DNA of 64,000 nt from Lama guanicoe (Eukaryota): NCBI GenBank assembly GCA_013239625.1, contig MU053304.1, forward strand, positions 558,001-622,000. Reading direction: 5' to 3'. Below, piece after piece: positions 2,223 through 60,054 of the stretch. The position numbers and the translations under genes were made by a program. How positions within the stretch are numbered: position 1 is the stretch's first letter; each line of letters starts with the position of its first letter. The notes beneath the pieces are model-generated. The model saw only the letters and a program-made list of their open reading frames with translations, was not told the origin of the DNA and searched no databases.

Positions 2223-3299
2223 CTAGTTGAGGTTGGGGCCGGCCTGGGCCTGGCTTGGGGTGAGGTGGCTGGTCAGGTAGCGCACGGCTGAGCGGATGCC
2301 CTCTATGGTCCTCTGCTCCACTGATTCCAGGATGTGGGTGATGGTGCGCAGGGCTGATATGGTCCCTTCTGCCAGCCCAGAGGAGAAGGCAGAGCTGGCG
2401 CTCCCTAGGATGCTGGAGACAGAGTGCAGGCCGGGCCCCGTGGTGTGCAGCAGGTCTGTCATGGAGCCGTGGCCAGAGGCCAGGATGCCTGTGGCCATGC
2501 CCATGGTGGTCTCAGACCACACCAGGATGTCTGCCAGCGAGCTGAAGGACCCCTCGCCCCCGCCCAACAGGCTGGTCATGGAGCGCATATAATTGTTCTC
2601 GCTGGCCTCGTAGTCTGTGGGCCTCCTCCCCAGAGCCACCCTTCGGGGCCCAGGCAAAGTAGGGGCTGATGGCAAAGCGTAAGTGTCAGGGTTCAAGGCC
2701 TTCGGATCCTCAGGTTTCTCAACAGCTTCAGCAGTGTCAGCGGCCCGAGTGTCAGGCTGGCTGTTGGCATCCGCAGTGCTCAGAACGGGCTGAGCCTCCA
2801 CATTTTGGGGGGACTGTACCTGAGCACTTGGGGTAAATGGAGCTAGTTCCTGCCCCCTACCTGGGACCGCCGCTGTTTGTGGTGTCTCTTCCTTAATCAG
2901 GGAGTCTTGTTGGAAAACCTGAGGACCCTGAGTCATCCTTGAATCTTGCCCGGGTCCATTCTGCACTGAGTCCTGGAGGCCCATGGATGTTTGCAGTGCG
3001 TCTGGGGCCGGGTGATCAAGCAGGGTGGTGGCCTCCTTGGGCTCCTGGCCATGCCCTGCAGCAGCTTCATGCTTGTCCTTGTCTCCAGACCCTGACTTGT
3101 CCTCCAAGGTGGCTGGCTTGATGGAGGCCTGGTCTACATCCTGCTGTTCAGCCAAAGCTGCAGTGCTGAGAGCTGCTGGGACACCTGCAAGGAGGGGCAC
3201 CGGACTTTGGGACCCCACGGTTGGGATGTCTGTAGACTTGCTGTCACCATGTATAGGGGTGCTGGTGGTTTTGGCCTCTCCTGAGGGCACGGTGATCAT
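2223..3299 (-). CDS. TEX44: Testis-expressed protein 44 (C2orf57 orthologue), single coding exon, 358 aa
   Basis: Intact 358-aa ORF with recognisable TEX44 blocks (QDVDQASIKPAT, SGDKDK, ALGRRP, YMRSMTSLL..GEGS.SSLADILVWSETTMGMA, ALRTITHILESVEQRTIEGIRSAVRYLTSHLTP). It is transcribed divergently from NMUR1, as in human. Confidence 0.93.
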   Translation of the reverse strand: MITVPSGEAKTTSTPIHGDSKSTDIPTVGSQSPVPLLAGVPAALSTAALAEQQDVDQASIKPATLEDKSGSGDKDKHEAAAGHGQEPKEATTLLDHPAPDALQTSMGLQDSVQNGPGQDSRMTQGPQVFQQDSLIKEETPQTAAVPGRGQELAPFTPSAQVQSPQNVEAQPVLSTADANSQPDTRAADTAEAVEKPEDPKALNPDTYALPSAPTLPGPRRVALGRRPTDYEASENNYMRSMTSLLGGGEGSFSSLADILVWSETTMGMATGILASGHGSMTDLLHTTGPGLHSVSSILGSASSAFSSGLAEGTISALRTITHILESVEQRTIEGIRSAVRYLTSHLTPSQAQAGPNLN

Positions 3300-31830: not shown

Positions 31831-33319
31831 GCAGCCTGGGTAGAGAATGAGGGTGTGGTGGGGCCAGAGGACCACTTGAATGGATGAAGATAAGCCTTGA
31901 TTCCAAGATGCGGGATTAGGCGTCGGAGAGGCAAGGAGGCTGGGGGAAGCTTCTGGGTGGGGGCTTTGGTGAAGAAGAATATACTCAGGATTAAGAACCC
32001 TTGGGATCTCGGAAAAAGAAGGACCTGAAAAAGAAAGCTGAACGGTGGGTGTGCAGGTACTTGGGGACCGGGAGTTCCCAAGCCCCCACCTGAGGAGAGG
32101 AAATGGAGCCTAAGAGAGGATCCAGGAACCAAGCCTGAAAATCCACAGTTGCTCAGAGGGGAGGGGACGTGGTGGTGGCGGTTTGGGGAACAGGCTCAGT
32201 AAGACAGCTCCTGGCTTTTTGAGTCAAGCCACATGCCCAGTGGAATCCCATTCAGCCCCTGGCCCAATCCCCTGAATTGTCCTTCCTTTGCCTGTGGGAA
32301 GGAAGGATCATGCTACTATGCACTGAAGTTGAGCACCTAAAATGTCAGGCACACTCCTGAGAACTTACTCTCTCATTTAATCTTCCAAGAAATTATGAGG
32401 AAGGCTCTATCGACTTACCCATTTTATAGATGAGGAGACCGAGGCACAGTGAGGGCCTGTCACAGAAGAGGGTGGCAGAGCTAGCATTTGACTGCAGGCC
32501 ATTAACTTCCTGGCTTGGGTCCTTAACTACTATATCTGGTGGACTAGCAAAAAGAGGAGCCTGAGAGAGGAAAGGGAACCTCAGAACTGGCAGTGTCAAG
32601 GTCTGGCAAATATTTCAACTCCAAACACTTCAGGTGATAGAAAACAGAAACAAGAACGAACTTTCAGATCTGCATTATAGCTTTTGGACCTTTCATGCCT
32701 TTGCTTGATCCCCACAGTGACTCAGTCCTCACAGTGAGGTGACATAATCAGGCCCTTCTGTGTGTCAGGCAGGCCCTGCGTTAATACCTTTCATGGGCTA
32801 AATTCCTTTATCTTTATAATATGGAAACAACTGCAGAGAGGTTACCATGAAAATGGCCCCACAGCCCGGAATTCAAGAGGCTGGATTTGAATCAAGGCAG
32901 CTGTTTCCAGAGCCCTTGCTCTTAAAACCATATGATACTATGTATTGTGCCCATTTTACAGATGCCCAAGCTGAGCATCTCTCCCAAAGTCAATGGCTTG
33001 AAATGGGAGAGAACCAAGGAGAGGCTGCTGATAACAAAGCCCATGCTTGAGATCAGCTCCATCACTATTCAGAGGCTTCACTAGATCTTGAAATTTAAAA
33101 TTGAAGTCCCACATTTTACTATTTTTAAGATGTATATATTTATATCTCTGAAATTGTAATGCCATTTTAAAATGTATGGCAGAGTTTGTCCTTCTCTGTG
33201 TTACATAAAATAATGGCCTCCTTAGTATCTATTGATGGTACTTTTGGTTTGATAAATTATGACAGAGCCAGGTTCCCTGAGTGACTTTTTCTGGTGTCAC
33301 TCTTTTTTTTGTTCCACAG

Positions 33320-34205
33320 GCTCCTCTTTGCCTCAACTGCTCCATCCTCCCTGGAAACAGGTCCCTGGGTGCAAAGAGCCTGGTGCCCTGCAATGGCAGC
33401 AGGGCCTTGGAGTCCTTTGACCCTGAGGACTTAAACCTGACTGATGAGGAGCTCAAGTTCAAGTACCTGGGGCCCCAGCAGATGGAGCTGTTCCTACCCA
33501 TCTGTGTCACATACCTGTTGATCTTTGTGGTGGGTGCTGTGGGCAACGGGCTGACCTGCACTGTCATCCTGCGCCATAGGGCCATGCGCACGCCCACCAA
33601 CTACTACCTCTTCAGCCTGGCCGTGTCGGACCTGCTGGTGCTGCTCCTGGGCCTGCCCCTGGAGCTCTACGAGATGTGGCGCAACTACCCGTTCCTGCTG
33701 GGAACCGGCGGCTGCTACTTCCGCACGCTGCTCTTCGAGACGGTCTGCCTGGCCTCGGTGCTCAACGTCACTGCCCTGAGCGTGGAGCGCTACGTGGCCG
33801 TAGTGCACCCGCTGCAGGCCAGGTCCGTGGTGACGCACTCCCACGTGCGCCGCGTGCTCGGGACCATCTGGAGCCTCGCGGTGCTCTGCTCTCTGCCCAA
33901 CACCAGCCTGCATGGCATCCAGCAGCTGAATATCCCCTGCCGGGGCACAGTGCCTGGCTCGGCCGTGTGCACTTTGGTCCGCCCAAGAGCCATCTACAAT
34001 CTGGTCGTGCAGACCACCGCGCTGCTCTTCTTCTGCCTGCCCATGGCCACCATCAGCGTGCTCTACCTGCTCATCGGGCTGCGGTTGAGGCGTGAGAGAC
34101 TGCTGCTGCTCAGGCAGGAGTCCAACGGCAGAGCCAGGACCAGGGACAGCCGCAGGCTCCAGCGGCTGCCGAATAGGGGTCGGACACAGGTGACCAAGAT
34201 GCTGT
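33320..34205 (+). CDS. NMUR1: Neuromedin U receptor 1, coding exon 2 (N-terminus to ICL3/TM6 start)
   Basis: Acceptor ttccacag| and donor T|gtaagt (phase 1). Class A GPCR motifs [20 protein letters not shown] and SVERY, plus the NMUR1-typical [19 protein letters not shown]. Confidence 0.97.
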
Positions 34206-34439
34206 GTAAGTTTTGCTGCTGGCAAGAGGGGCTGAGCCAGGCACTGGGTATGAAGCTGGGGCTTCCGGGGGCCCTGGGGAAGGGGCTGAGTGTCTGGGTT
34301 TATGATGGAGGCTGAATGTGAGGTATGGAGTAACACCACTGCCACCCACTGTGTGCCCGCGCGCATGCGCACACTCTCACACTGCAGGTGTATACTTTTT
34401 TAGATTACCTTGTGAGAAACCGACACCAAAGATAAATGT

Positions 34440-39903: not shown

Positions 39904-40051
39904 AAAAAAAAATTGTTATTACTTTTTTATTTTTGGTGGGGGAAGGTAACTAGGTTTACTTATTTATTTATTCTTAGAGGCAGTACTGGGGACTGAACCC
40001 AGGACCTCATGTATGCTAAGCATGTGCTCTACCACTTGAGCTATACCCTCC
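39904..40051 (-). mobile_element. tRNA-derived SINE (vic-1-like)
   Basis: Reverse complement of the SINE head 'ggggagggtatagctcaagtggtagagc..ggttcagtccccagtac'. Perfect 14-bp TSD CCAGTCCTGACATT at 39890-39903 and 40052-40065. Confidence 0.9.
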
Positions 40052-42254: not shown

Positions 42255-42402
42255 ATTTTTTAAATTAATCTTTCTTTTGGCGGTGGGGAGGAGGTAATTA
42301 GGTTTATTCATCTATTTATTTAATGGAGGTACTGGGGCTTGAACCCAGGACCTTGTGCATGCTAGGCATGCACTCTACCACTGAGCTATACCCCCCCCCC
42401 CC
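42255..42402 (-). mobile_element. tRNA-derived SINE (vic-1-like)
   Basis: Reverse complement of the SINE head: 'gtactggggcttgaacccaggaccttgtgcatgctaggcatgcactctaccactgagctatacccc'. Confidence 0.85.
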
Positions 42403-43348: not shown

Positions 43349-43972
43349 TGTAATGAGGGGGATCAGGATATGCTACCCCAAGACACAGCGCCTTGGCACA
43401 GTGAATAGTTTAAGCTGAATGCACTGGAAAAAAGCAGGTGCAGGAAGGACTCTCTGACCTTCCCCTGAAGCAGATTACAAGACCCTCCCTCCACTTAGAG
43501 AAAAGGAACATTCTTTTCTCCAAGACTGGGGAACAACAGGAGGAATCTGGGCAAATAGACCTTGTCATTTCTCCCAGTGAACCACTTACCTCATCACCCT
43601 TTCTGTCCTATCACATTTTTTCACACCCTCCACTCTTCATCAGACCTAGCATGAAGAGCAGGGTATAGCTCAAGTGGTAAGGTATATGCTTAGCATGCAT
43701 GAGGTCCAAGGTTCAATCCCCAGTACCTCCTCTAAAATAAATAAGTAAATAAACAAACCTAATTATCTCCATCCCTTGCTAAAAATAGAACAAAACAAAA
43801 ATCTAGCATGAAGATACCAATTCTTCAGGTTTTCATTTCCTTACAAAGGCTCTGTGACACATACAACTTAAATAAGTTTATATGCTTTTCTCTTGTTAAT
43901 CTGCCTTTTGTTACAGGGCCTCAGCCAAGAATTTAGACAAGTAGAGGAAAAAGATATTTTTCCTCCTCTATA
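43349..43972 (+). mobile_element. ERV solo LTR interrupted by a vic-1-like SINE (about 43657-43801)
   Basis: Begins TGTAATGAGG, has an LTR-like 3' end 'ttaaataag..tatgcttttctcttgttaatctg', and contains a nested SINE flanked by ctagcatgaag repeats. Confidence 0.6.
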
Positions 43973-46917: not shown

Positions 46918-47025
46918 CAGGGAAAAAAATCAAGGAAACTGAAGAAAAAGAACCTTTCCCCAAAGGAGATAGAAGATGGGGAAGATGAGATGTCTGAAGA
47001 TAAGGACAATGGCAGTAGAGATAAG
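46918..47025 (+). pseudogene. NCL-like exon 2 equivalent (acidic)
   Basis: Reads PKEIEDGEDEMSEDKDNGSRDK|gtaat, against NCL PKEVEEDSEDEEMSEDEEDDSSGEE|. Confidence 0.8.
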
Positions 47026-47916
47026 GTAATTGTATGTACAGCGTGGAGCATTAATAGCTTATTAATGTCAACAGTCAAAATCCAGAGTAAAGCTGTTAAA
47101 CTGCACTGTACAATCTAACAAGTGGTATTGTGAACTCTTTCCAACTAGTTTCGCAAGCCCACCCTAAACTTGGTACCAGAAACTGACAGTCATTTTTAGA
47201 AAAGAAAATTACAGACCACTCTCATGAGATGCAAAAGTTCCAAACAAAATATTAGCAAGTTGAATATCAGTGTTTTGTAAAAAGAATAAGACATTGTAAG
47301 TATGGTTTATTTTGGGAATGTAGAAGTGTTTTTTGTTTCAACGGTGATATTGATTGCCTGGAAATACTGGTTTGAAAGAAAATCTCATGACTCTTAAAAT
47401 TGCTTTATTAAATGTGTGCCAACCAAACATGTTTATATATTTATTCTTTCTGTGAATATTTAGATCCGTAGTATGTTCTGCTTTTGACTTGGAGCCTCTG
47501 CATTAGTATTTGAATATAGATGGGCTTAAGTTGTGTCCTAAAAGAATTGAGGTGAGTGAATGGGTGCACAGCTACTGAATACTGAATGCTTCATGTGTGC
47601 AGCCACTGTGCTAGGACTTTATGCATTGTCTCATTTCATCCTCCCAGTGATCGTATTTAGTAGACATCCTTAGCTCCATTTTACAGACAGGAAAACAGAT
47701 TTAGTCATTGACTAACTTGCTCATGGTTTCTTAACTAATGACAGAATTAGGATTCTGCTGAATCCAAAACCCTTGCTCTTTCCTGGTTCATTCCTCAGTC
47801 TTCACCCAAGCAACTCTTTTGGAGAGACAGATGGTGGATATTTATTGTCTGCTTTGAGCAGCTAGTTGCATAGTAGAAACTTTAACACTATTCAGTCTAG
47901 TAGTTTTAATCAATCA

Positions 47917-48275
47917 AGGGATAGAGCACTGTGCTTAGCATGCACAAGGTCCTGGGTTTAATCCCCAATACCTCTGTTAAAAAATAAATAAACCTAATTA
48001 CCTTTCCTACACCCCCCAAAAAATAAAACAAATAAAAAAATGTTTAAAAAAAGTAAGTTATCTAGGAGGGTAGGGGTATGGATGAAATAGATGAAGAGGA
48101 TTAAGAGGTACAAACTACCAGTTATAAAATAAGTAAGTCGCAGGGATGTAATGTACAGCATAGGGAATGTAGTCAATAATACTGTAATAACTTCATATGG
48201 TGTGTAATCTGTAAAAATACAGAATCACTGTGTTGTACACTGAAGCTAACAATATTGTACAATAGTACTTCAAAA
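47917..48275 (+). mobile_element. Partial vic-1-like SINE followed by a LINE-1 3' end
   Basis: 'gtgcttagcatgcacaaggtcctgggtttaatccccaatacctc' and an A-tail, then 'aagaggtacaaact.ccagttataaaataagtaagtc..gggatgtaatgtacagcataggga'. Confidence 0.75.
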
Positions 48276-49268
48276 AAGTCAATTATTCATGCATACTTTT
48301 TGATTTTAACTTGAAACATTAAATATGTATTCAGTTGCCAATCTTTTGATGTGGGATGAAAGCCTTGTCTGCATTCACTGTTGCAGTAACTTATCTTCTC
48401 TGTATAAAATACACCCATAGTGCATCTTCTGCATTTTAAAATTTGCTTCTTTAAAGCAAAGCAAAACTTTAAAAACCTAGCAAAGCAATTTGAATGTAGA
48501 CTTCCACATTTTTACAATTTTCCCCATTCTTTTATGGTTGCTTACCCACACCTGATTTGACTGCAGTTTTTAAACTTTATCAAGTATGTCCAAAGTGTTC
48601 AACTTTGTTTTCATAGATTCAATAACTTTGTGCATTAATTCGATCGGTTAACATGACATTTATTATGTAATTGAAACTGCACCTACAGTGGTCACATACA
48701 GGTTTGCAAACAAACACAACTGAGGCTTATTAAGGGTACATTTCAGCTCATGGGAGCAGAAATGCCCAGGTGTGCTGGGAGTTCCACATAGCAGTCCATT
48801 AGCCACACATGCTTTGCGTTTCATAGGCATCAAGTTAGTAAATCCTGGAATTGAGGCAGTCATTTACTCTAGCCACATAGTTCAGTGTGGCATAGTTAAG
48901 TGGACATAGTAGACACAGTTTAGAGAGCACCTACTGTACTGTGATGTCTACAATACAGTACATTAACTCTCCATAGCCGTCAGAGCCAAAAAAGTCTTGG
49001 TGAATGCAGTGTTTGTTTTGGAACCTAGACTGCTAGCTCAGAGGGAAGTAGAAGCAGTCACGTTATGTTTTCCTTAAACTGAGATGCATGTGATATGTTT
49101 CTAGACTGTTCCCACTGGCAACCTTTAGTCATTCCTCTCTAAAATGTGATGTCTGTAACAGTTTACTCTAATTGGTGCAGCAAATAATAATACTATCACA
49201 GATTAACTTTTAGGCTAACCAAACCCTACTGTTGGCCCATCAAAATTATTCAATTTAAACCCAAGTCA

Positions 49269-49402
49269 GGGGAGAGTATAGCTCAGTGGTAGAGTGCATG
49301 CCTAGCATGCAGAAGGTCCTGGGTTCAATCCTCAGTACCTCCACTAGAAGTAATAAATAAATAGATAAACATAATTACCTCCCACCCACCAAATAGATTA
49401 AT
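49269..49402 (+). mobile_element. tRNA-derived SINE (vic-1-like)
   Basis: Head 'ggggagagtatagctcagtggtagagtgcatgcctagcatgcagaaggtcctgggttcaatcctcagtacctcc'. Approximate TSD aaacccaagtc / aaaccttagtc. Confidence 0.85.
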
Positions 49403-50354
49403 AAACCTTAGTCTTTTTCACATATCTTCCCTGATCCCACATCATTCCCAGGTCAGATGAACCGGTCCCTCATCTGTTTCCCTGTCAATTTTGTTCATTA
49501 CCAGTAATGCTAATCACATCATATTATAGTTTCTCATCTCTTCCTGTGATGTGGGTTGAGATATATATACCAGTTGTGTTTTTGCTGGGGCTGCCGTAAT
49601 AAAATATCTCAGACTGGGTGACTGAAACAACAGAAGTTTACTTTTTCACAATTCCAAAATCAAAGATCAAGTTGTTGACAATTTGGTTACTTCTGAGGCC
49701 TCTCTCATTGGCTTGTAGATGTCTGCCTTCTCACTGTGGTTTCACGTGGTCATCCATCGCCCATAGTTCTTCATTTTCTCCTTTTGTATATGGTGAGACT
49801 TCATTTGGTGTTCTGCTAAACTTTTCATCTTTAGTCATTTAGTTTTGTAATACTGTGCCCTGTTATCAGTAGCCCCGGGATGGGAATTGACAGGGTAGAC
49901 AGGAAGCATGAAGTCCAGTCTTTGGGGCCTGGCTCTCATTCCTGTGTATATTCCACATGGCTGTGTGGGGCCTTCTTTGGTGTTTCACTTGTATGCAGAG
50001 AGCTGGGACTCCACAGGCACGTGGAGCCTCCTACACAGTAGTTGCCTTGACGTACTTTCCTTGGGCAGTGCTTGCATATTTTTAGAAACCTAGATCCTTC
50101 CCTCTGGAGATTCTGATTTGATAGCTCTTAGTGAAGTACGAGAATTTTCTTCTCTTCTTTTCCTTAGACAAGCATGCCAGGTTATTCTGGTGCTGGGAGC
50201 TCTTTCCTGCACGTTGAAAAATTCATCCTGGAGGAGATCAGCACAGATGTTGACACGTATGCCCGAGCAGATCTTGCACTTGCTGACTGTGCAGTATGAT
50301 CGTCACCTCCTGGCCAAAGGGGAGACCTCGTCACTGCTGCTCTCCCTCCTCCAG

Positions 50355-50563
50355 GTTGTCATCCCTCAGAAGAACCATAGGAAGGTTACCACTGCTCCAG
50401 GAAATAAAGTCAGGGGGAAAAAAGCATCTGGCTCCCATGTTTGCTGAGAAATTAATACCACCATGTAGGGAGGGAGCCACAGGAGCCAAGCTGCCAGGAG
50501 ATAGGAGGAATGCCAAACTGGAGGGCCGTGAGGAGAGACGTGCGGACTCTGATGAGAATGAAG
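50355..50563 (+). pseudogene. NCL-like exon 3 equivalent, shortened and frameshifted
   Basis: Begins ccag|VVIPQK, as NCL exon 3 does, and hits TGA at 50445-50447. The 3' part (..RRNAKLEGREE..DSDENE|gtaag) is in another frame. Confidence 0.8.
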
Positions 50564-51170
50564 GTAAGAACAGTGGGTTGGATGAGGACCAGGAAGGTAG
50601 AGACCCCTTCTGGGGACGTCCCTGGTGCTGGCTGTAAGGCGGCAAAGTTCAGCCCTGCATGCCATCCCACATGGCTCTGGGACGGGTTCTGTGAAAATCC
50701 CAGCCCTCAGAACTGTTGCCTCGGAGGTCCCCGGCCGATTCGCCAGGCTTGGCTTGAGGAGTCTCTGAACATTTGACTTCTGCTGTCCAGAATCAGAGAA
50801 CGACCAGAAACAAGGTTTTCTCTTTGAGCTTTATACCTTGATTGTTTCTCTCTTTGTGCTTATGAGCCACGCAGGTGAATCATCCCCCTAACTTACTCTC
50901 AAGTGATTTTGTTTTTGTCTTGACAGAGTCTGTGTAACATTTTAAATGGTATTGCTTCCAAAGCAATAATTCTTAGCGTTTTTTAAAAAATACAATGGCA
51001 AAACATTTTAAATTATTTCAAAATATAAGTTTAAAATGACAGTGAATTTTTTCCCCTTAGATTTGTGTATATAGTCAGATGTATGAGCAGTTTCTCTGAA
51101 AGAACAGTTTGTCATTTATGTTCTTAACAAGTCTGTGAGGCAGTAATTGATTAGGAGGGTTTTCATTTAG

Positions 51171-51280
51171 ATTCTGAAAAAGAAGTCATATGAGAAAAGC
51201 CTTTCCTGTGGGGGCGAAGGAAGATGAGCAGGATAGGGAGGGTGGTGACAAAGGCTGCCAGGAAGAGGAGGAAGAGGGAG
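51171..51280 (+). pseudogene. NCL-like exon 4 equivalent, frameshifted
   Basis: tttag|(D)SEKEVI then TGA at 51191-51193. A second frame reads KAFPVGAKEDE..EEEEEG|gtcag, against NCL DSEEEAM..KVVPVKAK..EEEEE. Confidence 0.7.
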
Positions 51281-51561
51281 GTCAGAACGACCTGAACTAG
51301 CTCTGGAAAGTGCTGGCCGCTATCAGGGAATAAGAGAGATAAGGGAAACCCTTGGCCAGGGCTGTGGGTTTCTTTTATGAACTTGGACTTTCTAATTAAT
51401 TTATAAGTGCTTTTAAAAGTGTTCTGAGAGACCTAACCCAGGCGTCTGGTGGCGAACAGGCACCACGTAGGTACAGTGTTCGTGGACTTTGTAAAAGCTT
51501 CCACTTTACTCATTAGTGGCACAGATCATTAAGAGTGCCACATTCTGGCTTTCACCCGCAG

Positions 51562-51648
51562 AGTCTATGCAAAAAACCACCTGATAAACAGAAGAAGGAA
51601 ATGGCCAAAAGAAGGCTTTCCCTGAAGCCAAAATACAGAAATTAGAAG
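51562..51648 (+). pseudogene. NCL-like exon 5 equivalent (bipartite NLS) with compensating +1/-1 indels
   Basis: 87-nt phase 1-1 exon resembling EPVKEAPGKRKKEMAKQKAAPEAKKQKVEG. In the main frame it contains TGA TAA at 51582-51587. Confidence 0.85.
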
Positions 51649-51727
51649 GTAACCTCTTTGCTGTGTTTTAAAGCACAAGAGACACGTGGAGAATTTCATA
51701 TTGGCAAAACTCAAATCTCTGTTAGCC

Positions 51728-51813
51728 CAAATGATGAACAAAGGAGTTTTAATTGCAGCCTGGTGTTACAATATGCCAGTCTTTAATGGAAATTTCTTTT
51801 GACATCATTCTGA
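51728..51813 (+). ncRNA. SNORD82: Decayed SNORD82 (U82)-like C/D snoRNA relic in the intron-5 equivalent
   Basis: C box ATGATGA at 51731-51737, then 'acaaaggagttttaat...cctggtgttaca', resembling U82, which NCL hosts in this intron. The guide and D' box appear degenerate. Confidence 0.6.
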
Positions 51814-51847
51814 ACTGTTTATTTGAGTTCTTTTCTTTCTTTTTTTC

Positions 51848-51878
<31 letters not shown>

Positions 51879-51903
51879 TTTTTTTTGCCTTTTTGTATGG
51901 CAG

Positions 51904-52042
51904 CTGAACCACCTGTAACTTTCAGACTATTTGTTGGAAAACTGAATTTCAACAAAACCGTTGCTGAACTAAAAACTGATCTTAGTGAATTTTTTGCTAA
52001 AAATGATGTCGCAGTTGACAGTGTCAGAGTCAGCTTGTCCAG
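51904..52042 (+). pseudogene. NCL-like exon 6 equivalent (RRM1 N-half), open frame
   Basis: AEPPVTFRLFVGKLNFNKTVAELKTDLSEFFAKNDVAVDSVRVSLSR, against NCL TEPTTAFNLFVGNLNFNKSAPELKTGISDVFAKNDLAVVDVRIGMTR. Flanked by cag| and |gtaa. Confidence 0.92.
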
Positions 52043-53081
52043 GTAAATAGATTGTTGTTAAGAGTTTATCAGCCCAACAATGATTATTCAGGTCAGACCG
52101 TCTTGTGACTTGCTCCTCATCCCTCAGTAGGACATTACCTTGGTCTCTTGCAGTTTAGAGCATTTAAAACCCTTCAGTGGCTTATTTAGTAAATCCATTA
52201 TATTAATTTTTGCTATCCCATTTTTCCAACCAGAATACTAAAGTAATCCGAAGATCTTCCAAGTCATTCCAGAGACACATTTTCATGATTTTTCAGCTGT
52301 GAACAATGCCATTTGCCTTAGAATTATTTTAAACTAATCACAAATTTAATCATGAAACCCCTAGCTTTGGTGGCAAATATAGGTTCTGTATCACTTCCGC
52401 TTTTTTGCTGAGTTGAATTTCATCCTTTCTTACTTCTTTCTCATCAGAAGCACATGCCTTGGGCATGGGCGTGTTTATTTTATGGTACTCAGAATTTCTT
52501 AGGTAGAGTTGAGAAGATAATAGTAAACATTCACTGAGCGCTAAACTGTTCCAGGCATTTTCTTAGTTCCTTGTTTATTTAACTCCTTGAAACCATAAGA
52601 CAATCCTCAGTAGTAATTTTTGTCATTATTCCCATTTTACAAAGGAGGGAATTGAGGCACAGAGAAGTTAAGTGACATGCCCAATATCCCACAGTTAGAA
52701 AGTGGCGGGGGCAGGATTTGAACCCAGCGCTCTGACTCCAGAACTTCTGCCAAGACTTTTGTCTTATTGCTCTTTTTACGGTTTTTGTGAACTGTATTTT
52801 GAAATATTGTCGCATTTGCAGTAAATAAAGATTCCTTTTGCATTAGAAAAATATTCTGACTGTAATAGCCCTTGAGTTTGCTAACATATTCTGTATTAGG
52901 ATTGATATTTTTGTTCCAGTTCCCAAATGCAATGGCTGTTTCTTAAAACAGAAATTCAAAAGCTTGTCATTTCAAGCTTCATTTTCTATAGCTTTTGGTT
53001 AAATTTAGTCAGTTTTTAAACAGAAAACTAATAAAGATTCAACGGGTAAGTTTGCACTGACTCTCCGTCCTTGCCCTGGAG

Positions 53082-53278
53082 GAGGGCTTCTCAATTTTGG
53101 CACTATTGACATTTGGGGCCAGATAACTCCTTGTTATGGGGGGCTGTGCATTTCCTTGTAGGCTGTTTAGCACATCCCTGGGGATCTTCCCATTGACACT
53201 GGAAGTGCCCCCTTACTAGATGTGACAGCCAAAAATGTCTCCAGACATTGTCAGACTCACCCTGGGTGAGAACCCCTG
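53082..53278. mobile_element. MER20-like hAT MITE
   Basis: Motif 'ttctcaa..ttggcactattgacatttggggccagataa...aaaaatgtctccagacattg...tgagaacccctg'. Confidence 0.8.
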
Positions 53279-53472
53279 CTCTCTGGTTACTTCATAGCAC
53301 TGCTGTTGCTAGTTGGTGGAGCCTTGGTTTTAAATTGTAAATTTGGCAGCTGTGTTTGACTCAATGCTAATTTTCACTCTCATATCCAGTGCACTTAGCC
53401 AACCAGAAGGCATGTGCCTCTTGATTTTACCTGTTTTTTTTTTTTTTTCCTTTTCGGCTACATCTCTGTTAA

Positions 53473-53597
53473 GAGATTTGGTTTTGTGAATTTTAAATCT
53501 GTTGATGACCAGGAAAAAGCCCTGGAACTTAGTGAGTCGGAGGTCCTTGGGTATAAAATTAAATTTAAGAAACCAAAGGGAAAGGAAACAAAGAAAG
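53473..53597 (+). pseudogene. NCL-like exon 7 equivalent (RRM1 C-half, RNP1), open frame with altered acceptor
   Basis: RFGFVNFKSVDDQEKALELSESEVLGYKIKFKKPKGKETKK|gtagg, against NCL KFGYVDFESAEDLEKALELTGLKVFGNEIKLEKPKGKDSKK. Confidence 0.9.
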
Positions 53598-54213
53598 GTA
53601 GGCAAACGAGGTACCTTGTTCATAGATACCTGTGCATCTAGAAGATTCTGCATCAGGTGGGAATATCACGTTCTTTCTCATCCAGGGCAAGTACTCCTCA
53701 GTTTCTGGCAAGTCACCGGCCTCCACAGCACAGTCTTTCTCACCTTTAGGCTGCATTGCTCACCTGCCCTGTCGTCATGTTCGTGACTCATTCCCTGGCC
53801 ACTAACAGCCCCTCCAGAGAGTCTCAGCTTAAAGGTCACTTCCTTAGATCAGAAGCATTTTCCCTGACCCCTCAAACAGTTAAGTCTTCTCTCCTCCATG
53901 TTTTCATTTCCCTTTTTATTTACTTTTCCTTCCTGGCACTTACCACAGTTTGTAATTATGTGACTGTTTGTTTACTAGCCTTTTCCCCAACAAGACTACT
54001 TTCCCAGGAGTGGAGGCCAAGTCTGTATTTTCACCACCAGCACGTAGCACAGGCCCTCACCCAGACTCTGTGTTCAAATATTTGTTCAGTGAAGGAATAT
54101 GTACTGTTTCCACTCTTTAACTATTTGAGAAGTATTTTTGTCTCTTGTTAGAGCACTTTTGATGCTTATGAGATCTAAACTCAGACTAAAAATACTCTTT
54201 TGTGTATATACAG

Positions 54214-54328
54214 ATGGAAATGCCAAAATGCTTTTGATCAAGAACAGAGTCACTCAGCATGAATTAATAGAAGTGTTTGAGGATACTTTTCAAATCAGAC
54301 TGGTGAGCAAGGATGGGATGAGTGAAAG
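54214..54328 (+). pseudogene. NCL-like exon 8 equivalent (RRM2 N-half), open frame
   Basis: cag|DGNAKMLLIKN---RVTQHELIEVFEDTFQIRLVSKDGMSE(R)|gtatg, against NCL ERDARTLLAKNLPYKVTQDELKEVFEDAAEIRLVSKDGKSKG. Confidence 0.9.
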
Positions 54329-54581
54329 GTATGTTTTGTACCTTGTACTGAAAATATATGTCTACTGGATTCTAATGTAACAGAATTTCATTATATTCTC
54401 CCAAATCACTCATACCTGATTTTAGAGAAGAGTAGTCATCCAGGCTTTCTACTGGCAGACATAAAAAGCATCATAAATGGATAGCCAAAGGCTTCTAGAA
54501 AATTGTAGTGGTGTCACAGACAAATAAAGACTTACTCTATCAAGTATAAGATTGAAGACTGGAAGAATCTAGTTATAGGTT

Positions 54582-55152
54582 TTTGTTTTGTTTAATTTAT
54601 TTTTATTGAAGTATAGTCAATTTACAGTGTGTCAATTTCTGGTGTACCTCACAATGTTTCAGTCATACAGGAACATACATATATTCATTTTCACCATAAG
54701 TTACTACAAGATATTGAATTTATTTCCCTGTGCTATACAGCATAAAATTGTTGTTTATCTATTTTATATGTATTAGTTAGTATCTGCAAATCTCAAACTC
54801 CCAATTTATCCCTTCCCACCCTTTTTTCCCCCTGCTAACCATAAGTTTGTTTTCTATGTCTGTGAGTCTGTTTCGTTTTGTAAATTAGTTTTTTTTTTTA
54901 GATTCCACATATAAGTGATATCATACAGTATTTTTCTTTCTGTTTCTGGCTTACTTCACTTAGAATGACATTCTCGAGGTCCATCCATGTTGCTGCAAAT
55001 GGCATTATTTTACTATTTTTATGGCTGAGTACTATTCCATTGTATAAATATACCACATTTTCTTTATCCTTTCATCTGTTGATGGACATTTATGTTGATT
55101 CCATGTCTTGGCTATTGTAAATAGTGCTGCTATGGACATTGGGGTGCATGTA
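54582..55152 (-). mobile_element. LINE-1 3' fragment
   Basis: L1 3'-UTR sequence. TSD tagttataggtt (54570-54581) / tagtcataggtt (55153-55164). Confidence 0.88.
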
Positions 55153-55769
55153 TAGTCATAGGTTCCCTTCATTCCACTTTATTTCAGTCACTTCAGGGCT
55201 AACTCCAGTAAAATCACACACTTGGTGAGTTACCTGTGCAGGTACTAAAAGAGAACATTGAATTGGTCTGTTAGAATGATGTAAGCAATTAATGAAACAC
55301 TATCACTGTGTATCTAGGCTTTGGTAGCATAAGAGGGTGAATACGGTGAAATTAGAAAAGATGGACTAGAATGCATTTTGAAGGGATTCTCAATGAGACG
55401 AAAATTGGAAATCAGGATTACAGATACACTTGAGCTAAATTTGTTGGTGTCAGTTAACTCTAAAATAACCTCTACTGTATATATATATATTTTTAGGTTT
55501 CTCTATTTTTATTTTATTTTTTATTGAAGTATAGTCAGTTTACAATGTTGTTTCAATTTCTGGTGTACAGCACAATTCTTCAGTCATACATGAATATACA
55601 TATATTCATTTTCATATTCTTTTTCACCATTCTGCCATGTATTCTGATGAACATAATCTCTAGAAAAGACTCCTGCAGATTTAGAAAACAAGTCTGAGAG
55701 GATAAATCCCAAATTGTTAGTGGTGTTTGCTGTAACAAGTACTGTGAGCACTCTGCTGGGCTTGCAAAC

Positions 55770-56740
55770 TATACAGAAAAATTAACTAAAATAGATGAAA
55801 GACCTAAATGTAAGCACTACGATGAAAAGACAGAAGTAAATCTTTGTAATCTTGGATGAGGGTATTACACAAGCCATAAAAAAGAAGATTGAGAAATTGG
55901 GCTTTATCAAAATTAAAAACATTTGTACTTCAAAAGACACTATCCAAAAAGTCATAAGAAACTCTACATCCTGGGAGAAGATATTGCAAATCATATATCT
56001 GATAAGGGACTTATATTCAGGATACATAAAGGACTTGTACAGCTCAATAATAAAAAGGCAACCCAATTTAAAAATGGGCAAAGGACTTGAATGGACGTTT
56101 CTTCAAAGAAGGTATACAGACGGCCAATGGACATGAGGAAAGATGCTCAACATTAGTTGTTAAGGAAATGCAAATCAAAACCATGATGTGATACCATTGC
56201 ATATTCATTAGAGTGGCTGTGATAAAAAAGACAGACAGTGACAATGTTGGCAAGGAAGTAGAGAAATCAGAACCCTCATTCATTGCTGGTGGGGAATGTA
56301 AAACAGTGTAGTTGCTTTGGAAAACAGTTTGGCAGTTTCTCAAAATGTTAAACATAGAGTTGCCGTATGATCCAGCAATTCTGCTGGAATTGAAGTACTG
56401 ATACATGCGACAACGTGGATGAGTCTCCAAAATATTGGGCTGAATGAAAGAAGCCAGACACAAAAGATGGCATATTTGTATAATCCCTTATATAAGATGT
56501 CTAGAATAGACAGATCTGTAGAGACAGAAAGTAACGTAGTGATTGCCGGCAGCTGGGGGACGGCAGTGAGTTGAGGGGAATGAGGGGTGACTACTGATGG
56601 GTACTTTGTGGGATGCTGAAGATGTTCTAAAATCAGATGGTGGCAATGGTTCTAGAATTCTGTAAACACACCATTGTACACTTTAAATTGGTGAATTTTA
56701 TGACATGTAAACTATATCTCAGTAGAGCTTTAAATAAAAA
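55770..56740 (+). mobile_element. Old LINE-1 (L1M-type) ORF2 end and 3' UTR
   Basis: ORF 55852-56136 (IKIKNICTSKDTI..WEKI) is L1 ORF2-like, and L1M 3'-UTR motifs follow. Confidence 0.85.
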
Positions 56741-56953
56741 AAGACGTGTATATGTGTATACATTTGCTTTTATATGTACAGCATGTTACCTCTAAGGATA
56801 GAAACTGGGCAGAAGGAAGACTTTGCTATATCTTTTCTATCTTTTGCATTCTGAGTCTTGTATGTTCATTCCTGATTCAAAAGACAAATAATTAAAAGTG
56901 CTAAATGTTGACCGTTCTTTCTTCTCTCTCCTATCCCAACCCCACAATTGCAG

Positions 56954-57105
56954 GATCGCCTATATTGACTTCAAGTCACAGGCCGATGCAGAGAGAGCCT
57001 TAGAACAGAAACAAGGAACTGAGATCGGTGCCATAGTTCTGGACCATGTTGGAAAGAAAAGCCAAAACCAAGAAGAGAGAGATGGAAAAAACAGCGCCTG
57101 GAGAA
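56954..57105 (+). pseudogene. NCL-like exon 9 equivalent (RRM2 C-half), open frame, phase-1 donor
   Basis: cag|IAYIDFKSQADAERALEQKQGTEIGAIVLDHVGKKSQNQEERDGKNSAWR A|gtaagg, against NCL IAYIEFKTEADAEKTFEEKQGTEIDGRSISLYYTGEKGQNQDYRGGKNSTWSG. Confidence 0.92.
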
Positions 57106-57572
57106 GTAAGGGTGTTAAAGCTGTAGATGGAGACTTGCCAGGCTTGTTTGTTAGCATGGCCCCCAGGGAGGGACTGGCAGGAGGTTAAGGGAACTTGATA
57201 CTTTTAAATATAATTTCTCCCTATATCAGAATGCATAAATCATCCTCATAATTCTATCAAGCTAATGGGTTTTGTCCTAGTGAACTGTGACTTTGATGTC
57301 TGCAAAAGGCGTGGCACTTTGAGATACATCAGTTCAGTTCCCCTTTTTGGGGTATCTTCTAGGATTCTGTTTGAACAAGATCTTGAACCTTTGGTTTCAG
57401 AATTAGATATTTAATTCTCTTCAACATTTAATTCTCTTCAAATAGAGTTTTTATCAAGTTTAAACCAGAGATTCCAAACCAGTGTCCCTAATCTGCTTAA
57501 TCTGATTGGTAGACATGATGCCTACACAGTGTTTAAAGAAAAAAAACAATAGAATTTACCATGAATATTTTT

Positions 57573-57827
57573 ATTTAAATATTTTTTTCCTTTTATAAAG
57601 CTTAAATTTTTTTGCTTGTTCTAATTTATTTTATTTTTTATTGAAGTGTAGTTGATTTACAATGTTAGTTTCAAGTATACAGCAAAGTGATTCAGTTACA
57701 TATATACATGCATAAGTATATTTTTTCAGATTCTTTTCCATTATAGCTTTTTATAAGAAATTGTATATAGTTTCCTGTGCTATATTGTAGGTCCTTGTTG
57801 TTTATCTGTTTTATATATAGTAATGTA
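57573..57827 (-). mobile_element. LINE-1 3' fragment nested in the hAT element
   Basis: 15-bp TSD accatgaatattttt (57558-57572) / accgtgaatattttt (57828-57842). Confidence 0.85.
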
Positions 57828-58129
57828 ACCGTGAATATTTTTAAAAATCAAGAAATTTCACATAAAAATCTGGATTTCTAGCTTCTTTTGCTACATCAGA
57901 GAATCTGGTGGCCCTGGGGCCACACTCTACGTGTCCACAGGCATCTGCTCCCTCTTAGCTGTTGGCTACAACCCCCACTGTTCTTGACGTTCTCCCCAAC
58001 TCTGAAGGAGTGACCATACTCTGACACTTTGGAAAAAATAGTTAATACTTTTTTCTTCCAAAGTGGTACTTTTTTCTTATTGATAAAGATGACATTTATA
58101 ATATGTCTTGTATATTTGTCTTTTAAAAG

Positions 58130-59860
58130 TGGGAAAATGAAAGTTAGAACAAGAAAGCCATACATTTCAAGAAACATGGGAGAAAACTTATTTCTTTGTG
58201 GAGGTAAAGAATGTTCCTACATGTTTAATATGCAAAGTCTGTCTGCGTCGAGAGAATGTAGCCTAAGACAGCATCATGAAACCAGCCATAGTAAGAACCA
58301 TGACGGGTTTACGGAAAAGATGCGGGATAGAAAACTCAACGAGCTGAAAAAAAGACTGAAATTTCAACATGATTTTCTTTTGAATGTGAGTAAAATAAGT
58401 GATGCTGCTATGAAATGTAGTTAAGTGTTAAGCAAGAAAATTGTCCGGGCATCAAAACCCCCTACAGATGGCGAGTTTATAAAGGACTGTCTACTGAGTG
58501 CGGCGGAAATCATGTGTCCTGAATAGAGACAAGCGTTTGCCAACATCAGACTCATTGGTGATATTGTTGCGCAGCACGTTGACAACATGACTGAGGACTT
58601 GCAGGACAAGTTGCAAGAAAAAGCCAGATCATTTGTGGCTTTCTCCATTGCAGCTCAGGAAAGCACTGATGGAAATGACACCCCCCACAGAGCTGTCTTT
58701 ATTCGTGGTGTCAATGAAACTTTTGATGTGACCGAAGAACTTTTGGGTGTGGTCCCCATGACAGGCACAACATCAGGAAATGAATTATTTCAATTTGTTG
58801 AGAAAAGTCTTAAAAAATTTAACATGGACTGGTCAAAATCAATATTAGCACAGATGGTAATTCTGCAGTGGTTGGTGTTAAAGAGCTAGTTACAATACTG
58901 AAATTGAAAGTGTCGGGGCTTTGCCAAGACACAGCACTTAAGTCTGTGTGTGGCCTCATTCTCCAGGAGTCACTTTAGGCTAAAAAATTTAAAACGGACC
59001 ACGTCATGGACATAGTAATTTATACCATAACCTGGATACGTTGCCATGGCTCGGACCACAGAAAGTTCAGTGCTTTGTTTAATGAGTCAGATGCACAATA
59101 TGGAAGCATGTTCTGCTCCATGGAACTTAAGTGGCTAAGTCGTGGTGAGATCCTCAGGCACTTTTTTGAACTATTGGAAGAAATTGACTTTTTCATGTCT
59201 TCTAAAGGAAAAGCTGTGCCTCAGCTTATGAGCAAAGACTGGGTCAGAGACTTAGCCTTTTTGGTTGACATTATGACGTATCTAAACATGTTGGATATTT
59301 CTCTGCAAGGATGTTCACAAATGGTGACACAAATGTATGATTCACTTCACTCATTCCTAGCGAAATTGTGTCTTTGGGAGACTCATTTGGCAAGGAACAC
59401 TCTGGCCCACTTTCCTACGCTGAAATTAGTTTCTGAAAATGAAAAGGATGGACTGAACTACATTCCCCAAATTAAAGAGTTGAAGACTGAATTCCAGAAA
59501 AGGTTCTCTGATTTCAGAGTTTATGAGAATGAACTAATATTGTTTAGTTCCCCTTCTCCATTAATATTAATAATGTGAATGAAGAGCTACAAATGGAAGT
59601 TACCGAATTGCAGTGCAACACTATACTGAAAGTGAAATATGATGATGTTGGGGTCCCAGAATTCTACACATGCATTGGGAATGGTAACCCTAAATATAAA
59701 AACCATTGTGCAAAGACTTTGCCCATGTTTGGAAGTACTTTATGTTTGTGTGCAGCTATTTTCTGCTATGAAGCTGAATAAAACTGAATACTGCTCCCAG
59801 TTAAAGGATTCAAAGATGAATCCTCTGCAGGATGTTGCAACACAAAATCCACAACCTTAA
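58130..59860 (+). pseudogene. Disrupted Charlie8/GTF2IRD2-like hAT transposase (BED-type Zn finger, RNase H-like core, dimerisation region)
   Basis: Blocks FQETWEKTYFFVEVKNVPTCLICK, FIRGVNETFDVTEELL..VPMTGTTSGNE, KWLSRG, DWVRDLAFLVD, FLAKLCLWETHL.RN.LAHFPTLKLVS.NE.DGLNYIP and EELQMEV..LQCNT.LK match the GTF2IRD2 transposase domain. Stops at 58138, 58422, 58524 and 58976; frameshifts near 58236, 58840, 59555 and 59740. Confidence 0.92.
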
Positions 59861-60048
59861 GAAAAAAAATATCTACAACCTGACATTGATTGACATCTTG
59901 CGGCATAAGAAAGGAATGTCAGATTTTGAATTTCAAATCTGAGGAGTAATACTTTGAATAATTATTTCTATTTCCAAATTATATTTTTTCAACGTCAAAG
60001 TTAAAGTGCAATCTCTGGCATCATATGTTTGTGCCTTATAACATATGA

Positions 60049-60054
60049 AATAAA
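60049..60054 (+). terminator. AATAAA polyA signal after the transposase exon
   Basis: AATAAA about 190 nt after the transposase stop, followed by U/GU-rich sequence. Confidence 0.55.

Follow-up and report, generated by a model that had tools for sequence, protein, structure and literature searches.

The question raised by a 64,000-nucleotide stretch of the Lama guanicoe genome (assembly GCA_013239625.1, contig MU053304.1, positions 558,001 to 622,000 of the forward strand; this whole stretch is referred to as the window) is whether a shortened duplicate of the nucleolin gene, NCL, and a Charlie8-like hAT transposase located downstream of it belong to a single gene, and what has become of that gene. 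The initial annotation of this locus had proposed that the acidic region, the nuclear localisation signal (NLS) and the RNA-binding domains RRM1 and RRM2 of nucleolin are fused by splicing to the transposase, a proposal which is supported by intact relatives, by intronless contigs and by phylogenetic trees of both the RRM and the transposase parts. Window positions 46.9-60.1 kb (+ strand) very probably represent a pseudogene that is orthologous to an old host-transposase fusion gene of eutherians, for which the label NT, for nucleolin-transposase fusion gene, is used here.

Exon structure of the fusion locus

The locus opens with an intron-containing NCL paralogue on the + strand (46.9-57.1 kb), encompassing the acidic/NLS region, RRM1 and RRM2, and continues into the transposase, as follows (^ marks an exon border):

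46921-47025, + strand: exon a, nucleolin exon 2-like, reading ..KKKNLSPKEIEDGEDEMSEDKDNGSRDK; donor AAG^gtaatt; two adjacent AGs place its start at 46921 or 46918
50355-50563, + strand: exon b, basic/acidic N-terminal region (VVIPQKN..KVTTAPGNK..APMFAEK..); donor GAAG^gtaag, phase 1
about 51181-51276, + strand: exon c, a possible exon, acidic stretch; matched by the elephant model only (E 9e-4), with a weak acceptor
51562-51648, + strand: exon d, NLS-like KKxPDKxKKEMAKQKA..KKQKLE
51904-52042, + strand: exon e, first half of RRM1 (EPPVTFRLFVGKLNFNKT..), open; donor CCAG^gtaaat, phase 2
53476-53597, + strand: exon f, second half of RRM1 (FGFVNFKSVDDQEKALEL..KPKGKETKK); acceptor ambiguous; skipped in the contigs of a close relative (P0396)
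54214-54328, + strand: exon g, first half of RRM2
56954-57105, + strand: exon h, the RRM2 second half, corresponding to nucleolin exon 9; ends TGG AGA A^gtaagg, phase 1
57106-58129, + strand: intron between the nucleolin-like part and the transposase exon; contains a long interspersed element (LINE) 3'-end fragment at ~57600-57830 and ends ttgtcttttaaaag
58130-59886, + strand: exon i, Charlie8-like hAT transposase, a single exon
60049-60054, + strand: AATAAA signal 3' of the transposase frame

The splice phases are compatible from exon to exon, and the order, sites and phases agree with those of nucleolin and of the orthologues described below, while Pfam detected RRM_1 in exons f and h, even as fragments. 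At the fusion point, the sequence reads as initially annotated, i.e., a phase-1 donor at 57105/57106 is followed by a ttttaaaag^ acceptor ending at 58129, and the transposase opens in phase 1 at 58130 with A^TG GGA AAA TGA AAG TTA GAA CAA GAA (M-G-K-stop-K-L-E-Q-E). The TGA at 58138 had been interpreted as a probable CpG-decayed Arg codon, which is in line with the Arg or Gln found there in the orthologues (cat, fur seal and whale read MGKRKLEQE). Further into exon i, an internal GAG^gtaaag at ~58203 coincides with the exit point of short isoforms elsewhere ('FFVE^'). The window holds one copy of the nucleolin-like gene and no second one, true NCL being located outside it, and, as had been claimed, no RRM3-like (exon 10-like) exon is present in the window: tblastn with true nucleolins matched only the exons at 51.9, 53.5, 54.2 and 56.9 kb. 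A 199-residue fragment of the transposase exon (58979-59578) matches its orthologues with an E-value of 1e-104 and 85% identity, which takes the transposase likeness far beyond chance.

The NT family in other mammals

A search with this 199-residue fragment among longer proteins returned 223 matches among 527 candidates, of which the best 120 were considered. Thirteen of the 14 best matches are NT proteins (71-85% identity), true GTF2IRD2 reaching at most 68%, so that the expectation of intact forms in other mammals proved justified. The suggested search for proteins combining RRMs with a hAT/GTF2IRD2-like part was similarly productive, such proteins being found in bats, felids, rhinoceros and elephants. 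The following NT models were identified:

Vespertilionid bats: Myotis myotis, M. davidii, M. brandtii, Pipistrellus kuhlii and Cnephaeus nilssonii, 946-1017 residues
Felids: one 29-member and one 4-member cluster
Perissodactyls: Diceros bicornis and Equus quagga, the Equus model being 376 residues
Elephants: Loxodonta and Elephas
Galago: Otolemur, transposase part only

Junction-bearing models are also present in Tamandua (Xenarthra), and all four placental superorders are thereby represented, the transposase-only galago model included. Precomputed RRM Pfam matches exist for nine of the 14 best matches. A Pfam scan detected RRM_1 in all five NT proteins scanned for it and zf-C2H2_12 in 6/6 proteins, mostly just below the cut-off, while the GTF2I repeat (PF02946) was found in human GTF2IRD2A only and in none of the five NT proteins. 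The zinc finger that had been predicted is thus present, although it is of the zf-C2H2_12 (SPIN-DOC) type and not a BED finger.

RRM1-2 and the transposase occur together in P0432, P0001, P0007, P0008 and P0014. The whole frame is open in the vespertilionid bats and in two intronless contigs, as is the transposase part in felids, rhinoceros, elephants and galago. Raw assemblies contribute open reading frames (ORFs) of 813 residues (P0432) and 711 residues (P0001), in addition to three bat ORFs of 535 residues. Residues 224-403 of the bat protein P0007 align residue for residue with the solved RNA-binding domains 1-2 of nucleolin (E 1.5e-80), and this alignment stops at ..NSTW(S)G, which is the nucleolin exon 9/10 border. 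The NT junction, '..NS.WR^(V/M)GK(R/Q)K(I/L/M)EQESHTFQEKWE', is the one drawn in the initial annotation, and an identical junction residue is found in models of 10 species from four superorders.

The statement that this architecture is not a named gene stands insofar as NT has no proper name and no literature on it was found; gene models do already exist, under the names 'GTF2IRD2-like' and 'RRM domain-containing protein', with short isoforms called 'nucleolin(-like)'. Of these public names, 'GTF2IRD2-like' and 'nucleolin-like' are misleading, and in the names shown no NT model is flagged as low quality.

In vespertilionid bats the N-terminal 190 residues of NT (proteins P0007, P0008, P0014 and P0225) are 67% identical to the bats' own nucleolin (P0126, P0242), or ~83% without gaps, as compared to 25% identity to the rhinoceros NT N-terminus and 65% between the bat NT RRM part and nucleolin. 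This points to probable 5' gene conversion by NCL, or to secondary replacement, in the vespertilionid lineage.

Thirteen 'nucleolin-like' or odd nucleolin models (goat, muntjac, whales and others) match only the RRM exons of the window, at 34-60% identity; these were considered as further fusion members and rejected as ordinary nucleolin-type proteins. A metagenome scan for orthologous DNA with the 199-residue fragment gave 87 pattern matches, none of which was confirmed.

Probable spliced RNA across the junction

Evidence at the RNA level comes from three sets of assembled contigs of public sequencing runs (Logan), whose complementary DNA (cDNA) nature is inferred from their lack of introns. 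P0432 encodes 813 residues in 3101 nt and encompasses the acidic stretch, the NLS exon, RRM1, RRM2, the junction and the whole transposase without an intron; P0001 encodes 711 residues in 2546 nt, is equally intronless and reads through the identical junction. P0396 (195 residues, three contigs of up to 2348 nt) derives from a close relative of the window species and joins window exons e-g-h-i, exactly at 57105^58130, with exon f skipped. Its identity to window exons g, h and i is 81%, 94% and 88-98%, respectively, it shares both in-frame deletions of the window and it ends exactly at the window TAA at 58422, while it carries TGG at 58138 and lacks the frameshift at 58237. The first eight residues of P0396 correspond to the end of exon e in another frame, which indicates an RNA of exons e-g-h-i without exon f.

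The three contig sets are intronless over four to at least seven exons, and the window introns between the P0396 exons measure 2.2, 2.6 and 1.0 kb, which argues for an origin from spliced RNA, a retrocopy being less likely. The close relative therefore probably still produces spliced RNA across the fusion junction. Furthermore, among 24 runs listed, 20 hold at least half of the sampled transposase-exon words; of these 20, only four are recorded as RNA, all of a single study and labelled as reproductive system, and they hold 0.54-0.55 of the words, a measure that shows neither splicing nor strand.

Descent and orthology

In the transposase tree (36 rows), NT and the window sequence form a clade with a support of 100, within which the order galago, elephants, Laurasiatheria (97) is that of the species tree; GTF2IRD2 forms a separate clade (100), and a third clade and one free-standing ORF are located nearer to NT. 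In the RRM tree (27 rows), NT and the window group together (100/100) as sister to eutherian nucleolin (100/99), with a joint support of 85/73 and marsupial nucleolin outside. The best tree accordingly dates the duplication after the marsupial split (85/73), although the approximately unbiased test is compatible with an earlier origin (p 0.33).

The window locus is fixed by its flanking genes downstream of NMUR1 and on the same strand. NT and NCL are neighbours on the chromosome, their models being found on equally long scaffolds in each of four species (Myotis myotis, M. brandtii, Elephas and Eschrichtius), one of these scaffolds being only 2.1 Mb. The human NMUR1-NCL interval probably contains a non-coding gene. 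We conclude that one tandem duplication and one capture took place before the placental radiation. In the proposed scenario, an intron-containing tandem duplicate of nucleolin would have arisen between NMUR1 and NCL and would have retained the acidic/NLS exons and RRM1-2; its exon-9 equivalent would splice, in phase 1, to an acceptor within the first codons of a Charlie8-like hAT transposase, and the captured transposase would supply the remainder of the protein and the 3' end.

These data also bear on the idea that the two parts are chance neighbours, i.e., a truncated nucleolin duplicate beside an unrelated Charlie8 fossil, joined by a gene-prediction artefact. Charlie-type fossils are common in mammalian DNA, and no inverted terminal repeats of the element were identified: around 57.8-60.3 kb there is no convincing pair, the best (57903-57919/60241-60257, 17 nt, 76%) being no better than many others. 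Old elements often lack such repeats. A chance arrangement nevertheless seems extremely improbable in view of the intronless contigs P0432, P0001 and P0396 that cross the junction, the same junction residue in the 10 species, the matching splice phase and a transposase clade that mirrors the species tree.

Decay of the window copy and constraint in its relatives

Whatever the state of its orthologues, the window copy is unable to make the protein. Exon a has AAG in place of the start codon of its orthologues, which read MSLSPKE in rhinoceros, elephant and whales; exon b has one frameshift in a G5A6 run near 50413-50424; and exon d has two compensating frameshifts, with a TGA and a TAA of the original frame between them. 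The NCL-like part that had been annotated is hence present but itself broken, with three frameshifts. Exon g has a 9-nt in-frame deletion just 3' of RNP2 (IKN, a three-residue gap, RVTQ) and exon h a 6-nt in-frame deletion. The transposase exon contains four internal stops, at 58138 (TGA, 58138-58140), 58422 (TAA), 58524 (TAG) and 58976 (TAG), and four frameshifts, near 58237 (within the zinc finger), 58840, 59555 and 59733, amounting to eight disabling lesions in 1.7 kb. The transposase remnant does run, as was claimed, to a TAA followed by AATAAA, although not in one frame; this TAA (59858-59860) belongs to an insertion of 24 nt and comes five codons ahead of the end of the orthologous frame, whose stop is at 59884-59886. 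Since P0396 shares the TAA at 58422, this stop is older than the split from the P0396 species.

Constraint was assessed with a protein-level proxy, i.e., the private changes of each lineage at sites where the other six lineages agree, split by whether these sites are shared with 22 outgroup transposases:

Six intact lineages pooled: deeply conserved sites 49/1171 (4.2%), other sites 59/509 (11.6%), ratio 0.36 (single lineages 0.11-0.55)
Window: deeply conserved sites 22/209 (10.5%), other sites 10/85 (11.8%), ratio 0.89

Changes avoid the deeply conserved sites in all six intact lineages and do not in the window, the share of changes at such sites differing between the window and the pooled lineages (Fisher p 0.026). 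The ratios of 0.36 and 0.89 indicate that the intact lineages protect a conserved core and the window does not. Together with general neutral rates, the eight lesions in 1.7 kb and the excess change at conserved sites suggest that constraint was lost in the window lineage on the order of 10-20 million years ago, as a rough estimate.

Could the window copy still work in another way, as a spliced non-coding RNA or through a short RRM-only or other peptide? A close relative probably yields multi-exon spliced RNA from this locus (P0396), the four RNA-seq runs of one study point in the same direction, and annotations of Myotis, whales, hippopotamus and elephant include short isoforms of the nucleolin-like kind. 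The loss of the orthologous ATG, the frameshifts in exons b and d and the skipping of exon f in the RNA of the relative, which throws RRM1 out of frame, speak against this; conserved sites of the window change as fast as its other sites, and transcription of pseudogenes is common and no sign of function. We consider such residual activity unlikely and regard the window copy as an ordinary unitary pseudogene.

It could further be argued that the fusion, although transcribed and open in some species, is selected nowhere and is a decaying leftover whose ORFs are owed to chance or to generous gene models. Consistent with this are the losses and truncations in many lineages, an evolution faster than that of GTF2IRD2 and the patchy nucleolin-like exon content of the models. 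Unbroken ORFs of 535-813 residues are nonetheless found in raw assemblies as well as models, in three superorders that split before the window accumulated its lesions; deep sites are avoided in 6/6 intact lineages (0.11-0.55, against 0.89 in the window), and the zinc-finger Cys/His ligands are kept in 7/7. A fusion that was never selected is therefore quite improbable, and NT is preferred as a gene that is maintained in some lineages and dead in the window.

Six models from whale, hippopotamus, sirenian and fur seal (P0400, P0419, P0413, P0423, P0420 and P0412) are short, carry frameshifts or bypass parts of the transposase exon by splicing, and one whale model of the NT locus ends in sequence resembling a short interspersed element (SINE). 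They look like independent decays of the same gene.

Motifs and possible function of NT

The RNP2 and RNP1 aromatic positions of the nucleolin part are kept in bats, P0432 and one felid, and the Cys/His ligands of the zinc finger (CxxC...HxxxxH) in all seven NT lineages. For the transposase, NT was compared with 54 distant relatives (34-53% identical):

DESTD of the distant relatives: HES.. in 7/7 NT lineages; Q in the window
HCIIH: HGL(I/F)L in 6/7 NT lineages, RGLIL in elephant; Cys and second His lost in 7/7
RW: KW in 6/7 NT lineages; elephant retains RW
TDG: kept in NT
CEQ.FS: kept in NT

The published text on the Hermes transposase names D180, D248, R318, W319 and E572 as its key residues (PMC6027215). 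A profile alignment places the TDG, RW and CEQ motifs on the chain positions of D248, R318/W319 and E572, respectively. In a sequence search against solved structures, the C-terminal stretch alone matches Hermes significantly (E 4e-5 to 4e-4); neither the D248 nor the RW stretch is significant by itself, yet both fall on the published residue numbers. The five-residue set of an active hAT transposase is incomplete in NT, which keeps the equivalents of D248, W319 and E572. The loss of the putative first catalytic Asp and of CxxH in all seven lineages suggests that the NT transposase no longer cuts DNA, and this domain looks like a domesticated module, catalytically dead but structurally maintained.

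An intact NT would be a nuclear protein that couples nucleolin-type RNA binding to a transposase-derived C2H2 finger and an RNase-H-like/C-terminal module. GTF2IRD2 antagonises its relatives, and by analogy NT may serve as an adaptor that binds RNA and DNA, or may modulate nucleolin.

A number of points weigh against this picture of an old gene under selection. Constraint was judged by a proxy at the protein level, with numbers that are modest, in place of the ratio of nonsynonymous to synonymous rates (dN/dS), and the contigs are classed as probable cDNA by their absence of introns. The first D of DESTD is a putative equivalent of Hermes D180, based on spacing (67 versus 68 residues) and on the D-x-x-T-D pattern. 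The NT transposase branches are ~2-4x longer than those of GTF2IRD2, and invariant positions across the six NT lineages amount to 54-68%, evenly along the domain (46-92% in GTF2IRD2); judged from these alignments, constraint is weaker in NT than in GTF2IRD2. The cat, rhinoceros and elephant models are partial and skip some nucleolin-like exons, and the galago model has none, so that the RRM part may be decaying outside bats, with the transposase alone as the unit under selection. Finally, the short or frameshifted models of whale, hippopotamus, sirenian and fur seal imply that NT is often dispensable.

Comparison with known fusions and a shared point of entry

NT fits the class of host-transposase fusions, since a transposase-derived part and a host domain share one ORF in the relatives, though not in the broken window copy: the transposase occupies its own exon and is joined by splicing, intronless contigs extend across the join, and orthologues occur in long-separated species. 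Such fusions are a documented route to new regulators, most known cases joining DNA-binding transposase parts to chromatin domains. In the text of one survey, KRAB and other chromatin domains dominate among the host domains (10.1101/2020.05.07.082677). The host part of NT is unusual in that it is RNA-binding and derives from a central ribosome-biogenesis protein, so that a coupling of RNA binding to nucleic-acid binding of transposase origin could be tested on NT. The gene has survived unevenly, being whole in some bats, incomplete in several orders and dead in the window, in whales and in sirenians, and it thereby offers a natural experiment on gene retention.

The closest known system, GTF2IRD2, is itself presented as a host-transposase fusion in the texts consulted (10.1101/2020.05.07.082677; PMC10641963). 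It carries the same kind of transposase (62-64% identical to NT in most species over ~575 residues; 59% in hamster), entered at the same residue ('^VGKRKIDQE') and equipped with the same zinc finger, and likewise has an incomplete catalytic set with KW for RW. It differs in its host part, GTF2I repeats (PF02946), which NT lacks, in forming a separate clade (support 100), in being slower evolving and in being kept in all mammals among the matches listed. The catalytic losses also differ: TDG has become STG in GTF2IRD2, while NT instead loses the DESTD Asp and CxxH. All four GTF2IRD2 proteins shown have STG for TDG (the Hermes D248 equivalent) and KW for RW, unlike the retention of DDE/RW residues that is stated in the text of PMC10641963.

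From nucleolin itself NT has its exon structure, its acidic/NLS region and RRM1-2, the bat NT RRM1-2, which retains the RNP motifs, being 65% identical to the nucleolin of the same bat. Nucleolin has four RRMs and a C-terminal Gly/Arg-rich domain, whereas NT has RRM1-2 only, the transposase replacing RRM3-4 and the Gly/Arg tail from the exon 9/10 border onwards. Nucleolin RRMs evolve many times slower than those of NT, with end branches in the RRM tree of 0-0.06 and 0.1-0.3, respectively.

A third fusion joins the FAU ubiquitin-like domain FUBI to the same transposase at the same entry point ('..VVGRMLG^VGKRKMDRE') and is represented by P0046, P0201 and a 36-member cluster. It occurs in felids and Elephas, is annotated as 'GTF2IRD2-like', and its host part matches the solved FUBI domain with an E-value of 5e-32. 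In the transposase tree it adjoins NT, in an unresolved group with the free-standing ORF P0013, and it keeps DESTD and RW, as well as TDG and HCIIH in both FUBI-bearing models. No paper on a FUBI-Charlie8 fusion was found in a literature search. A Rousettus model in the FUBI clade starts with MSLSK, lacks the FUBI part and reads TNG and HSIIH.

Among other fusions, SETMAR, CSB-PGBD3 and KRABINER arose, as is proposed for NT, when host exons became spliced to an inserted DNA transposon, according to the survey text (10.1101/2020.05.07.082677); they involve other transposon superfamilies and host domains. The main text of that preprint contains none of the terms 'nucleolin', 'NCL', 'RRM' or 'RNA-binding', and its Table S3 may list the gene. 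A literature search found no description of a nucleolin/RRM-transposase fusion, which could nonetheless be present in the gene table of a published fusion catalogue.

According to the junction residues of 17 proteins, the point of entry into the transposase is one and the same residue ('^VGKRK') in NT, in GTF2IRD2 and in the FUBI fusion, and free-standing ORFs start MSLSK-VGKRK. The pyrimidine-rich first codons followed by AAAG would seem to act as a built-in acceptor, and the window sequence ..tgtcttttaaaag^ (58100-58131) looks like a remnant of those codons. A single entry point in three fusions suggests that an acceptor was already present in the first codons of the element, which would explain its repeated capture. 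As a broader reading, which we regard as possible and somewhat short of probable, NT would be an undescribed, ~100-million-year-old placental gene composed of the RNA-binding half of nucleolin and a catalytically dead Charlie8 transposase. On this account the gene is whole in vespertilionid bats, kept at least in part in cats, rhinoceros and elephants and repeatedly lost in other lineages. NT, GTF2IRD2 and the FUBI fusion would then represent three independent captures, all made through one first-codon acceptor of an element pre-equipped for splicing into host genes, two of the three hosts being ribosome-biogenesis genes.

Two further sequences, P0013 and P0463 (Logan contigs of up to 2736 nt), encode a free-standing Charlie8-like ORF of 605 residues with all motifs intact, whose branch is very short (0.024) and attaches basally to the NT and FUBI clades. 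This ORF may represent a further domesticated copy or, in some mammal, an element close to the ancestral one.

Flanking genes and repeats in the window

Two flanking genes were identified in the window:

33281-34315, + strand: first coding exon of NMUR1 (E 3e-151 to the solved neuromedin-U receptor 1)
2223-3299, - strand: DUF4678 (TEX44-type) ORF (E 6e-145)

A search with Rfam revealed no small nucleolar RNA copies in the introns, the matches being tRNA-like SINEs only. The repeats noted are the following:

39977-40050, 42324-42395, 43659-43732 and 49272-49344: four tRNA-Ala-like SINE heads
54567-54775, 55485-55614 and 57602-57822: three intronic copies of a LINE 3'-end repeat of ~200 nt
within 51828-51894: a T-rich run of 56 nt, located just 5' of exon e

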